Counted from the stretch's first letter, positions 27,557 to 49,272 are shown. The stretch: DNA of 64,000 bases from Candidatus Babelota bacterium (GCA_013287265.1 JABDEC010000004.1:1403-65402); one strand, 5' to 3'. Numbers and translations are program-made. Notes: generated by a model from the sequence alone, not told the origin.

Positions 27557-28147
27557 CTATAAAATTACACAAGTTGATGTATGCATCGCTAACACTTTTT
27601 TCATCATTTCATTTCCTTTGATAAAATCATGTATATTTAACGGAATATCTTCTTCTTGTAATAATACTAATTTCGCATCTGCTTTATTTTTCAGCAAATA
27701 AGTAAAAATATTCAAGAATTGTTTTTGAGCTGCAATCATTAATGGAGTCAAAGAATATTGATTTTCCCTTTTATTGATGTCTGCACCATGTTTAAGTAAT
27801 AGATCAACAACACTTAAATATCCTTTTTGACAAGCAAAATACAATGCAGTAGCTTTTGCCGATGATACATCTAAGATTGGAAAATGAGAAAGATTGTTAA
27901 TGACTTCTGCACGCATTTCTTCGCTATCTATTTTTGTTAATTCAAGAATAACTAAATCTAATGCAGTACTCTCATTGTGCTGATTTATTGCTTCAACAAT
28001 TTTTTGAGAATGAATAGGAACATAAACTTCATGTCGATGTAAACTAGTTGTTAATCTTTGAAGAAGTTCTTGATCTTCCCCAACTTTTTGATCTAAAGCC
28101 AATGAATTTGAAGCTAAAAATAAAGATATAATAATTCTAATTTTCAT
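27557..28147 (-). CDS. Secreted ankyrin-repeat protein with C-terminal CaaX box (CVIL)
   Basis: Signal peptide; TALYFACQKGY and TPLMIAAQ ankyrin motifs; ends TCVIL*. Confidence 0.8.
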   Translation of the reverse strand: MKIRIIISLFLASNSLALDQKVGEDQELLQRLTTSLHRHEVYVPIHSQKIVEAINQHNESTALDLVILELTKIDSEEMRAEVINNLSHFPILDVSSAKATALYFACQKGYLSVVDLLLKHGADINKRENQYSLTPLMIAAQKQFLNIFTYLLKNKADAKLVLLQEEDIPLNIHDFIKGNEMMKKVLAMHTSTCVIL

Positions 28148-28367
28148 TTTTGTTGTCCTTAAATTTTAAAATTAAAGATTTTTTTATGATAATGTCATAA
28201 ATATTAAAAAATAATATTTATGAAAACAAGATTTGAATTTGAAAAAAAATAAATTTAGGCCAATGGCCAATTGAAAATTAGAAGCAAGAAAGATTGTAAG
28301 ATAAGATTTTTGAATTTTAAAATAACTTTATTCATATTTTAAAAATTATATTGAATTAAATAATTAA

Positions 28368-29390
28368 TCAAGAAATCATTTTCTGGCCAAAATATTTATT
28401 TTTTAAATACGGTTGAATTTTGTATGGAATTTGTCTTCCGCGAGCAGTTTTTTCTAAAAAACCTTGCCTGAGCAAGAATGGTTCATAAACTGTTTCTATT
28501 GTTTCAGCGTCATCGCCAATTAAAGATGCCAGTGTTTCAAGTCCTGCAGGTCCACCATTAAAATTTTCTAATATTTTTTTTAATAATAAATTATCGATCT
28601 GATTTAGTCCGTCTTTATCAATTCCTAAAAATGATAAAGCCTTTTCTACTAATTTATCATCTGCAATATTTTCATTATTAACTTGCGCAAAATCTCGAAC
28701 TCTTCTTAAAATTTTTTTTGCAATTCTTGGAGTCCCGCGCGCGCATTTGCCAATTAACATTGCCGAATTTTCAGAGATTTTTAAATTTAAAAAATTAGAA
28801 CTTTGTAAAACAATCTGACAAAGATCTTCTTGTGTATAAAAATCTAATCTTTCAATAATACCGAACCTACTTCTTAAAGGCGCAGAGATCATGCCTGATT
28901 TTGTAGTTGCGCCAATTAGAGTAAATGAATTAATTGGTAAATTTACAGTTTTTGCTCCTGCTCCTTGTCCAATTATTACATCAACACGGAAATGTTCCAT
29001 TGCGCTATAAAGAACTTCTTCTACGTTTGACGGCATTCTGTGAATTTCATCAATAAATAAAATATCGCGAGATTCAAGTCCTGACAAAATTGCTACTAAA
29101 TCACCAGTGCGTTCCAACATTGGACCACTGCAAATTTTTATTCCGACTTGCATTACATTTGCCATAATTTGAGAAAGTGTTGTTTTGCCAAGCCCTGGAG
29201 GACCAAAAAGTAAAAGATGATCAAGCGCTTCATTGCGCATCTTTGCGGCTGTAGTATAGATTGATAATTTTTCTTTTAATTCTTTCTGACCAAGATAATC
29301 ATCAAAATTTTTAGGGATAAAATCCGTTGATTTCTCTTCGGCAGTTTCTTGTAATGTTAGATATTGAAATTGTTCAATTTCATTTTTCAT
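28368..29390 (-). CDS. ruvB: Holliday junction branch migration helicase RuvB
   Basis: GPPGLGKTT, LFIDEIHR, GATTKSG, SAPLRSRFG, RGTPRIA, YEPFLL. Confidence 0.97.
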   Translation of the reverse strand: MKNEIEQFQYLTLQETAEEKSTDFIPKNFDDYLGQKELKEKLSIYTTAAKMRNEALDHLLLFGPPGLGKTTLSQIMANVMQVGIKICSGPMLERTGDLVAILSGLESRDILFIDEIHRMPSNVEEVLYSAMEHFRVDVIIGQGAGAKTVNLPINSFTLIGATTKSGMISAPLRSRFGIIERLDFYTQEDLCQIVLQSSNFLNLKISENSAMLIGKCARGTPRIAKKILRRVRDFAQVNNENIADDKLVEKALSFLGIDKDGLNQIDNLLLKKILENFNGGPAGLETLASLIGDDAETIETVYEPFLLRQGFLEKTARGRQIPYKIQPYLKNKYFGQKMIS

Positions 29391-29462
29391 AAAATAATTT
29401 TTTAAATTTAAAAATCTACTTTAAATATTTTGTAACTTTTTTATATTTTTAAAGCAATATAT

Positions 29463-47267: not shown

Positions 47268-47287
47268 AATAGCAAATTTAATGGATT

Positions 47288-47845
47288 TTATAATTCTTGT
47301 TCATAATCAAATGCAATATTAGCCAAAGAAACAGGCAAATTACAAGTTCTTTGCACTAGACATTTTCTTTCTATTTCAATTGCATCATTTAGTGCATCAA
47401 TTACCGGCATTGGTTCACCAGCGTGTATTTTTGGAAATAATGCAGAATTTGAATGAAAAATTGGATGAAAGTAGTTTATGCAAAATGGAATTCCATTAAG
47501 AATTAATAATCTATAAAATTTTATTAGAAATTCATAAGGCTTATTGCTTAAATCTTTAAATTCTAACATCAAATATGTGTCAAAATATTTTTTATAACCT
47601 TTGTTATCAATAAAATTTGCTAAATCTTCTATTGATGCACAGTTTTTTATCATATGATTTATTAACGAGTTTATGATCTCTCTATTTTTTCCAATACTTC
47701 TAGTTTCTAAAGTTCTTTCGAATTTTTCTATTAAAACCGAATTTTCTATTTTTTCTGCCAATTTAACAAGATTTTCTTCCATTGCAAAAGAATTACCTAA
47801 ATTAAGAGCGAAAATTGTAAGTAAAAAATATCGTAAAAATTGCAT
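47288..47845 (-). CDS. Secreted hypothetical protein with C-terminal F-box-like motif
   Basis: Start at 47845 (MQFLRYFLLTIFALNLGNSFAMEE) matches the leader of the upstream gene; ends LPVSLANIAFDYEQEL. Confidence 0.7.
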   Translation of the reverse strand: MQFLRYFLLTIFALNLGNSFAMEENLVKLAEKIENSVLIEKFERTLETRSIGKNREIINSLINHMIKNCASIEDLANFIDNKGYKKYFDTYLMLEFKDLSNKPYEFLIKFYRLLILNGIPFCINYFHPIFHSNSALFPKIHAGEPMPVIDALNDAIEIERKCLVQRTCNLPVSLANIAFDYEQEL

Positions 47846-47865
47846 TTTATAATCTTCATTTAAAA

Positions 47866-49272
47866 TTAAGAAATTATACAAGAACTATCTGGATTACCCA
47901 AAGTTTCTGAAACTTCTGCACATGAATTTGCCTGAACGCGTTTAATTAAAAGTTGAGCTGCATCTTCATAACCGAATAATCTAGCAATATCAATTGCATT
48001 TCTACCCATCTGATCTCTTCTATTAAAAATAATTTCATGTGGATCAATTTCTTCTAATGCATTAATTTTTCCTTTAGCCGCTAGCCACATTAATTTTGTC
48101 CAACCTAAAGTTGCATCTTGACCATCAAAAAATTGTAAATCCGCATCTTTAATATATGGCAATATTGCATTTGCACGCTTAATATTTCCCGCCAAATATG
48201 CATTTTTAAAATCGTCGATAAAATTTAATGGCATTTGTAGATAATTCATAATCGCGGGATACTGTTTTAATCGTTGAATATAGTCATAATTTCCAAATAA
48301 TTTAGCGAGATCAATAGCATTTCTTCCTTGTTCGTCTTTTTGAAGTAAAAGATTTTGATCTTTTAACGCATTCAAAATGTAATCTGCTTTTCTTCCGGTT
48401 GCAAATGACCACATTAAAATATTCCATCCCAATAATTCATCTTTAATAGTAAAATCTACTGATTCAAATGGATTACCACGAAATCTTCGTTGAAAGTGAC
48501 TAGCCAAAAGTTTCCTTGCAATGTTTTTTTCCAAAATAATTTGAAGTACATCTGGTCGTAAATTTTTCAAAATTTTATTTGCAGAATCAATATCGCCTTT
48601 TAAATAAAAATGTTTAAAATCTAAAAGAATTTGCGGGATTCTAGAATCTTCAAATCCATTGATAATGTTACTTAGTGGAGGATTAAGACTTCCAATTTCG
48701 TACAATAAGCATCGGATTTGATTAAATCTTTGTTCTTTATTTTTTTTTAATTCAGCATTAATAAATGCATCATAAAGGGGTGCAGGGTAACCCATTGAAG
48801 AACGATAATTTATTTTTCCATTTTTAAATTCAAGAAAACCTCTGTATCCCTCTTCAAGAAGAATTTGAAAATTAAAATCATTGAGCATTAATAATTTAAA
48901 AAATTCTTCTAAAAAATTATTATCTTTTTGGTTTAAAATGGCTGGATCAAGGTTTAAAATTTTATTTTTAAAAAATTCTTTATTTGCCTGAATGAATGTT
49001 AATATTTCTTCAGGCTTGCAACCTTTTTTTAATAATAAACCTACAATATTTTGTATTAGCTCTTTTATTGCTTGATGATCTTTATTTTCAGCTTTTAAGG
49101 TCTCTAAATATTGAGATAAAGATTTAATTTCTGCATCTAAAGTTTCGATATATCTTGAAAAAATGGAATCTTCTTGCCAATTTTGAGCAGCAACTTTTGC
49201 TTCTTCCATTGCAAAAGAATTGCCTAAATTCAGAGCGAAAATTGTAATAAAAATATATTTTAAAAACTTCAT
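47866..49272 (-). CDS. Secreted ankyrin-repeat protein with CaaX box (CIIS)
   Basis: Leader MKFLKYIFITIFALNLGNSFAMEE; two GWxxLMW...DxxGRNAIDxAxLFG modules; ends SSCIIS*. Confidence 0.78.
   Translation of the reverse strand: MKFLKYIFITIFALNLGNSFAMEEAKVAAQNWQEDSIFSRYIETLDAEIKSLSQYLETLKAENKDHQAIKELIQNIVGLLLKKGCKPEEILTFIQANKEFFKNKILNLDPAILNQKDNNFLEEFFKLLMLNDFNFQILLEEGYRGFLEFKNGKINYRSSMGYPAPLYDAFINAELKKNKEQRFNQIRCLLYEIGSLNPPLSNIINGFEDSRIPQILLDFKHFYLKGDIDSANKILKNLRPDVLQIILEKNIARKLLASHFQRRFRGNPFESVDFTIKDELLGWNILMWSFATGRKADYILNALKDQNLLLQKDEQGRNAIDLAKLFGNYDYIQRLKQYPAIMNYLQMPLNFIDDFKNAYLAGNIKRANAILPYIKDADLQFFDGQDATLGWTKLMWLAAKGKINALEEIDPHEIIFNRRDQMGRNAIDIARLFGYEDAAQLLIKRVQANSCAEVSETLGNPDSSCIIS

Follow-up and report, generated by a model that had tools for sequence, protein, structure and literature searches.

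Candidate host-prenylation tails on leader-bearing proteins of a Babeliales bacterium

Why should proteins that a bacterium appears to export end in a motif that is read in the cytosol of eukaryotes? The question is raised by a 64,000-nucleotide stretch of DNA from Candidatus Babelota bacterium (GCA_013287265.1, JABDEC010000004.1:1403-65402; hereafter, the window), in which four genes encode proteins that combine an N-terminal export leader with a C-terminal CaaX box (Table 1). The enzymes that prenylate proteins belong to the eukaryotic cytosol and recognize a Cys at position -4. In the box, the residue after the Cys (a1) is exposed and free to vary, the next (a2) is hydrophobic, and the last (X) selects the enzyme, with Leu directing the protein to geranylgeranyltransferase I (GGTase-I) and Ser, Met, Gln, or Ala directing it to farnesyltransferase (FTase). 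From the analysis of the window and of the genome around it, we consider it probable that the tailed proteins are effectors exported through the Sec pathway and a type II secretion system (T2SS) and geranylgeranylated by the host.

The window's RuvB sequence places the organism within Babeliales/Dependentiae (TM6), with 67-78% identity to metagenome-assembled genomes of Candidatus Babeliales, Babeliaceae, and Dependentiae and 72% identity to the amoeba-grown isolate Noda2021. Babeliales are described as obligate intracellular parasites of protists (PMC4378268, PMC6561590, PMC4776705).

The tail in the window and across the genome

A preliminary description of the window had named four open reading frames (ORFs) ending in CVIL, CVIL, CTIL, and CIIS, and all four were recovered in translation with exactly those coordinates and ends. 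The second Cys and basic patch that it had noticed upstream of the tail of the 204-aa protein are likewise present, and its remark that no housekeeping protein in the window ends in this way held across the ~40 other window ORFs, none of which has a C-x-I-x end (RuvB, UvrA, MutS, a K+ transporter, and a glycyl-tRNA synthetase-like gene included). Each of the four begins with M-K and a hydrophobic stretch. Pfam matches identify ankyrin repeats in the 196-aa protein (Ank_2/Ank, E 4e-13) and in the 468-aa protein (Ank_2, E 7e-10), the latter ending in Ser, a farnesyl-type X. The 204-aa protein and its 201-aa tandem paralog, whose C-terminal end is CGCYIAGDCTIL, have no Pfam family. These two are 39% identical, with an invariant leader, an invariant C, I, and L at the end, and an indel in the tail region.

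For the genome as a whole, we worked from an assembly of 931,613 bp (28 contigs, ~28% G+C, 88% complete) and a set of 1054 ORFs covering 90% of the genome, generated with our own simple picker (longest ORFs of >=60 aa, greedy non-overlap). A Cys stands at position -4 in 75 of these ORFs; at each of the remaining positions between -1 and -15, the count is 10-35. The motif C-x-I-L closes 27 of the 1054 ORFs, ~250-fold above the 0.11 expected from its 29 internal occurrences in 278,052 residues (Poisson p ~1e-54), and the frequency of such ends is thus far above background, not equal to it. There was no ORF in the set in which C-x-I-L ended 1-7 residues short of the C terminus. Of all tripeptide ends in the proteome, VIL shows the strongest enrichment (13 versus 0.43 expected). 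The individual tails are CVIL (12), CTIL (5), CIIL (4), CAIL (4), CSIL (1), and CEIL (1), and 8 further ORFs end in C-x-I-N/S/Q/M (four in CIIN and one each in CIIS, CVIQ, CFIQ, and CLIM), so that the C-x-I-[LNSQM] set comprises ~35 of the 1054 ORFs, or 3.3%. No cytoplasmic housekeeping protein among the 1054 ORFs carries the tail. The tailed proteins are small (median, 145 aa); a Pfam family is missing from 29 of 34, and most are not ankyrin proteins.

Signal peptides were judged by an N-terminal hydrophobicity score, not by SignalP; a stricter regular expression was dropped because it missed obvious leaders. By this heuristic, the tail occurs solely on leader-bearing proteins (35 of 35 C-x-I-[LNSQM] proteins versus 582 of 1007 other ORFs; Fisher p 7e-9), an association that is complete but poorly discriminating. 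By eye, the leaders have the classical basic, hydrophobic, and polar-cleavage (n-h-c) regions. Loose as the heuristic is, a large leader-bearing fraction is expected in the phylum, because signal peptides are reported for 44% of the coding sequences of Chromulinavorax destructans, and for 78% of its ankyrin proteins (PMC6561590).

The tail has a strict form: the Cys is trailed by exactly three residues and a2 is Ile in 35 of 35 proteins, X is Leu in 27 of 35, and a1 varies (V/T/I/A/S/E). Judged by the motif, this grammar would suit GGTase-I in 27 cases and FTase in a few. Second signals may also be present in some of them. A further Cys lies <=5 residues upstream in 8 of the 27 C-x-I-L tails, versus 98 of the 1027 other ORFs (p 0.0035), a position that in eukaryotic CaaX proteins is the site of palmitoylation second signals. 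Two or more basic residues lie upstream in 4 of the 27 tails, including that of the 204-aa protein.

A Cys at -4 is also found outside this set. Numerous leader-bearing ORFs of small size (62-125 aa) and high Cys content have ends in which a Cys is joined by basic residues (such as CRGR, CRKR, and CKRS); much of the excess that remains at -4 is due to them, and they have the look of secreted mini-proteins and not of CaaX proteins. An identical end, NPNLIKLICDYI, with its Cys at -4 and a non-CaaX motif, is common to three ankyrin paralogs, one of which groups by blastp with a CaaX-tailed ankyrin protein.

Conservation of the tail among families and in relatives

Proteins were grouped by blastp (E<=1e-5) from a CaaX-like set of 35, in which a polytopic membrane protein (end CCVC) was discounted. 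The set falls into 22 components, ~21 of them composed of leader-bearing proteins. Tandem paralogs are 31-43% identical, and little is invariant in their alignments apart from the leader and the closing C, I, and L. Conservation of this kind is seen in three arrays, namely, the window pair, a set of five genes on C1, and a set of four on C11.

In their DNA, the 27 C-x-I-L tails draw on both Cys codons (TGT, 17; TGC, 10), 13 codons for a1, and four for Leu; each of the three stops occurs, and the sequence that flanks them (30 bases upstream and 40 downstream) holds <=0.6 bit per position. Because the codons vary and the flanks are unconserved, we ruled out a repeat element as the origin of the tails. 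The pattern points to selection on the tail at the protein level, not the DNA level, in unrelated families and in orthologs.

Only two homologs from outside the genome were found in a collection of 5.8 billion proteins, and both keep the tail. The sole homolog of the 468-aa protein (P0002; 65% identity, 469 aa) ends in NPDSSCIIS; a search of genome contigs for a locus related to that of the 468-aa protein gave no match. The sole close homolog of the 196-aa protein (P0007; 54% identity, 193 aa) ends in CEIL in place of CVIL, so that Cys, Ile, and Leu are retained and the tolerant a1 alone has changed. The 204-aa and 201-aa proteins had no homolog beyond each other in 151 genomes of the order or among the 5.8 billion proteins, and none among 1.84 billion representatives, where one match at E 6e-4 was disregarded.

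Structure prediction was informative for one family. The AlphaFold2 (AF2) model of the tandem family on C1 (predicted local distance difference test [pLDDT] score, 61) depicts a small beta-rich domain with a disordered tail, which would therefore be accessible. An OB-fold-like identity for this domain was rejected, as the best Foldseek match in the PDB was not significant (E 0.025, TM 0.38). For the 204-aa pair, the AF2 model was unusable as a guide to function (pLDDT 32), and ESM Atlas scores were at chance level (<=0.83); a row at 0.76 that names the T2SS-substrate NttC domain is a lead only.

To survey relatives, the degenerate DNA pattern Cys-aliphatic-Ile-Leu/Phe-stop was searched in the 151 genomes of the order, and six genomes, picked for high counts or as a named record, were checked ORF by ORF, a choice that overstates the frequency of the trait in the order. 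In G032 (same family, another genus), 30 of 32 sites were examined, and 11 end leader-bearing ORFs of 128-419 aa: eight are ankyrin proteins, one is WD40-like below curated cutoffs, and two are without a family. Three of 23 examined sites end leader-bearing ORFs in G075 (same family), as do three of 23 in G125 (another family), where one of the three has a calcineurin-like phosphoesterase domain and two more sites end short leaderless ORFs. In the isolate Noda2021, one of 18 examined sites ends a leader-bearing ORF and one more a leaderless ORF, and in G043 and G024, each from another family, none of 20 and none of 18 sites, respectively, ends a leader-bearing ORF. Since 18-23 matches in a genome corresponded to 0-3 real tailed ORFs, we rejected the raw pattern count as a proxy for the trait. 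The background of the pattern is ~18-20 (per genome/per Mb), and G000 (33) and G032 (32) alone stand out of the 151; on these counts, the tail appears to be sporadic in Babeliales and expanded in the lineage of our genome.

The combination of leader and CaaL end was also seen in relatives on ORFs with enzyme-like domains, namely, a calcineurin-like phosphoesterase, DUF4258, and a weak EndoU-like match below the cutoff (Table 1).

Export, a candidate route, and its alternatives

Genes for the Sec translocon, signal peptidase I, and T2SS are all present in the genome. They include SecY, an S26 signal peptidase (Peptidase_S26), a SecA-like ORF, and three secretins, two of which are of the GspD type and cluster with GspC (T2SSC, PF11356) and a PilM/T2SSL-like gene; the third adjoins a PilO-like gene. 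This equipment matches what the literature describes for Babeliales. Searches of the 88% complete genome at E<=0.01 did not find prenyltransferase beta (PF00432) or alpha (PF01239) repeats, an Rce1-like/CPBP protease (PF02517; 11 of 14 control genomes were positive), the type IV secretion system (T4SS) marker VirB4 (PF03135), or the type III secretion system (T3SS) marker FHIPEP (PF00771), and VirD4 (PF02534) was found neither in this genome nor in 6 relatives. Among the tailed proteins, our own heuristic predicted no transmembrane segment after the leader, and no outer-membrane anchor, lipobox, or beta-barrel was noticed.

A CaaX box maintained by selection on leader-bearing proteins constitutes sequence-level evidence for action in the host cytosol, because prenyltransferases are cytosolic eukaryotic enzymes. 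From the motif, its position, enrichment, and conservation, the leaders, and the gene families, all of which are directly observed, we infer the following steps of transport and lipidation. The proteins would be exported by SecYEG/SecA, with the leader cut by signal peptidase I, and would then cross the outer membrane via GspC/GspD type II secretion or in outer-membrane vesicles. Once in the host cytosol, the flexible tail would be recognized by host GGTase-I where X is Leu (27 proteins) or by FTase where X is Ser, Gln, or Met, with Asn uncertain. Processing by host Rce1 and ICMT would follow prenylation. The lipidated protein would be anchored on host endomembranes, sometimes aided by an upstream Cys or basic patch, and its ankyrin or orphan domain would act at the host membrane.

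The preliminary description had proposed such host-lipidated effectors with a Sec-dependent export route, an idea that gains sequence-level support from the enrichment, the fixed end, the leaders, and the searches that found no prenyltransferase of the bacterium's own and no T3SS or T4SS. It had added that a different delivery mechanism would be implied. This stands insofar as Sec and T2SS genes are present and no T3SS or T4SS marker was found; it does not stand as a new idea, since this mode of delivery had been proposed for the phylum (PMC4378268).

Several points weigh against this reading. Secretion, presence in the host cytosol, and lipidation are all predictions from sequence. The leader heuristic flags 58% of the other ORFs. 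Acidic, not basic, residues precede 15 of the 27 C-x-I-L tails, and the X of four tails (CIIN) is Asn, a residue outside the classical set. Across the relatives checked, the trait has an uneven distribution (0/20 in G043, 0/18 in G024, 1/18 in Noda2021, and 3/23 each in G075 and G125). The Cys must remain reduced during periplasmic passage. As the genome is 88% complete, the absence of a prenyltransferase, T3SS, and T4SS amounts to "not found" and is not proven. Finally, T2SS delivers its substrates to the outside of the bacterium, so that if the bacterium is vacuolar, one more membrane would have to be crossed; Babela massiliensis is reported to grow inside a vacuole (PMC4378268).

The proteins might instead stay on the bacterium or on vesicles that it sheds, with host-prenylated tails tying these to host membranes such as those of mitochondria or the endoplasmic reticulum. 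Such a surface tether is a variant of delivery into the host cytosol, not a contradiction of it, and it draws on the same motif evidence. The very small size of many of the proteins and the lack of a Pfam family in 29 of 34 are as would be expected of simple tethers, and a host mitochondrion is reported to wrap C. destructans, which sheds vesicles (PMC6561590). The lack of a recognizable outer-membrane anchor, lipobox, beta-barrel, or post-leader transmembrane segment (the last judged by heuristic) argues against retention at the surface, and we regard the tether as unlikely.

Also improbable, and slightly more so, is a sorting or lipidation signal of the bacterium itself, of the MYXO-CTERM, exosortase, or rhombosortase kind, whereby an enzyme of its own would lipidate or cleave the protein at the Cys for display on the surface by T2SS. 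Sec-type leaders and T2SS are both present, as such a system would require, and MYXO-CTERM is reported to combine a signal peptide, an invariant Cys, an enzyme of the CaaX-protease family, and T2SS-dependent display (PMC11980579). [quoted passage not shown] No Rce1-like/CPBP protease was found in the genome, the grammar of free a1, Ile at a2, and Leu at X is that of eukaryotic GGTase-I, and the ankyrin and WD40-like domains suggest eukaryotic targets.

Tail-specific proteases recognize nonpolar C termini. A tail without function in this organism, either a relic of host-captured genes (a eukaryotic origin is frequently assumed for ankyrin genes in intracellular bacteria) or a hydrophobic end to which a PDZ-type protease or chaperone of the periplasm binds, the Cys being incidental, is very improbable, as ~21 unrelated families, mostly orphans without a eukaryotic homolog, would each need the same four-residue end, paralogs and orthologs keep the tail while the remainder diverges, and a protease tag has no need of an invariant Cys at exactly -4.

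A second type of tail bears on host-lipidated effectors as the preferred reading. The tripeptide -SKL is the second most enriched C terminus of the proteome (8 versus 0.54 expected; p 1e-7), and 12 ORFs have tails that resemble peroxisome signals (RSKL, 4; KSKL, 2; PSKL, 2; RSNL, 3; AKL, 1). Eleven of the 12 are leader-bearing, none has a Pfam family, and by eye they are mostly unrelated to one another, with one paralogous pair. These tails have the form of the eukaryotic peroxisomal targeting signal 1, and with them exported proteins may carry another sorting code of the host cytosol; if real, this second code would strengthen the case for host-lipidated effectors. We consider it evenly balanced whether Sec with T2SS or vesicles delivers straight into the host cytosol a secretome addressed with eukaryotic C-terminal codes (~35 prenylation boxes and ~12 -SKL/-SNL/-AKL tails).

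Neighboring features and comparison with known systems

Table 1. Coordinates of the tailed genes, their neighbors, and other ORFs mentioned in the text. Positions without a prefix are those of the window.
Feature	Position	Strand	Description
CaaX ankyrin gene	27557..28147	-	196 aa; export leader; ankyrin repeats; end HTSTCVIL; CaaX codons 27560-27571, stop 27557-27559
Orphan CaaX gene	31164..31778	+	204 aa; export leader; end KKTRCGKCVIL; CaaX codons 31764-31775
Tandem paralog of the 204-aa gene	31796..32401	+	201 aa; export leader; end AGDCTIL; CaaX codons 32387-32398
CaaX ankyrin gene	47866..49272	-	468 aa; export leader; C-terminal ankyrin repeats; end DSSCIIS; CaaX codons 47869-47880
Paralog of the N-terminal part of the 468-aa protein	47288..47881	-	Leader-bearing; no CaaX tail; end DYEQEL
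Member of the same blastp component	38730-39479		
tRNA-Pro and tRNA-His	32404..32626	-	ARAGORN; directly downstream of the orphan CaaX gene pair
SKL-type ORFs (L244-L255)	C5:27908-31546, C13:289-1017, C8:37431-37859, C16:17326-18291, C6:16818-21284, C11:4797-5357		
SKL-type ORFs on C3 (within L244-L255)	C3:23951-24520, C3:65900-66433, C3:74068-74895		
Small Cys-rich ORFs (examples)	C11:1702-2302, C13:20060-20511, C16:954-1196, C2:62872-63114, C6:22901-23421		Leader-bearing
Ankyrin paralogs with identical non-CaaX end	C10:39704-40528, C18:10244-10870, C9:42165-42617		Cys at -4
Leader + CaaL ORFs of relatives	L182:112-1512 (G125), L207:1045-1512, L214:1504-2217 (G075)		Enzyme-like domains
Giant paralogous ORFs (three, tandem)	9618-23928		1570-1602 aa; leader-bearing; 40-47% G+C
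ORFs preceding the giant ORFs	1577-3583, 4827-6869, 6926-8950		668-680 aa; similar ends RLS, RIS, RIS
ORF after the first 668-680 aa ORF	3592-4731	-	
Cys-, Met-, and Ala-rich protein	43723-44253	+	176 aa; leader-bearing; no charge clusters

The 468-aa protein, the neighboring paralog of its N-terminal part, and the ORF at 38730-39479 form one blastp component, and this family thus holds both tailed and untailed members. Accessory genes commonly insert at tRNA genes, and two of these adjoin the orphan CaaX gene pair. Elsewhere in the window, the three giant ORFs have a G+C content well apart from the 28% of the genome. Of the three 668-680 aa ORFs that precede them, the first is separated from the others by a minus-strand ORF and the other two are adjacent; these and the giant ORFs may be surface or autotransporter-like proteins. 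A single 176-aa leader-bearing protein is rich in Cys, Met, and Ala.

Dependentiae is a widespread, almost uncultured phylum of protist parasites in which nearly half of the proteins carry export signals. Within such a secretome, the tail would mark which of the orphan proteins are effectors and where they are destined, namely, host membranes. If general secretion delivers a secretome so addressed straight into the host cytosol, this would be the first host-lipidated set of bacterial effectors that needs no injection machine and the densest CaaX arsenal known in any bacterium (~3% of ORFs), and the tail could serve as a built-in reporter of Dependentiae proteins that act inside the host. The patchy, lineage-specific expansion of the tail could help to infer differences in host or niche among Babeliales.

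Comparison with other Babeliales separates what is new from what had been proposed. B. massiliensis and C. destructans, of the same order, share with our genome a large leader-bearing secretome, many signal-peptide ankyrin proteins, and a route proposed to run through Sec/T2SS or vesicles (PMC4378268, PMC6561590, PMC4776705). In B. massiliensis, 79 of 126 ankyrin proteins are reported to have signal peptides and T2SS to be the only secretion system, and Pagnier et al. (2015) proposed that the signal-peptide ankyrin proteins are secreted by T2SS into the amoeba cytoplasm (PMC4378268). The accessible portions of the papers on these two organisms make no mention of CaaX, prenylation, farnesylation, or peroxisomes (PMC4378268, PMC6561590, PMC4776705), and the B. 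massiliensis genome paper contains no term for geranylation or lipidation either (PMC4378268). Among the matches listed from openly available full texts, supplements aside, we found no paper linking prenylation or CaaX to Dependentiae, Babeliales, or TM6. The novelty here lies in the CaaX tail, and this tail is a further, independent line of evidence for the Sec/T2SS route.

The MYXO-CTERM/myxosortase system of Myxococcota has in common with the proteins described here a signal peptide, a C-terminal Cys that is invariant and for which lipidation is proposed, and a dependence on T2SS (PMC11980579). It differs in that a transmembrane helix and an Arg-rich tail follow the Cys and a CPBP protease is needed, whereas here three residues follow and no CPBP protease was found (PMC11980579).

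The closest functional parallels are bacterial effectors that end in CaaX and are prenylated by the host, some of them with ankyrin repeats. For Legionella AnkB and seven Pel effectors, host prenylation is reported as proven; it depends on the Cys and brings the proteins to the cytosolic face of host membranes (PMC13081727). Localization is reported to depend on T4SS, and the seven Pel proteins are found among ~368 effectors (PMC13081727). The Salmonella effectors SifA and GtgE are likewise reported as CaaX proteins prenylated by the host (PMC2916131, PMC13423502). The Legionella and Salmonella proteins are injected by T4SS and T3SS, whereas the proteins described here bear Sec-type leaders in a genome in which no T3SS or T4SS marker was found. 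Legionella has seven Pel effectors in a far larger genome, compared to ~35 tailed proteins among the 1054 ORFs here, with a geranylgeranyl-type X Leu in 27 of 35. Host prenylation of bacterial effectors, so far bound to T3SS and T4SS, would thus be extended to a bacterium with general secretion only. The proteins of this Babeliales genome would differ from the Legionella and Salmonella effectors in their delivery by general secretion, their density of ~3.3% of ORFs, the dominance of geranylgeranyl-type ends, and the phylum in which they occur.

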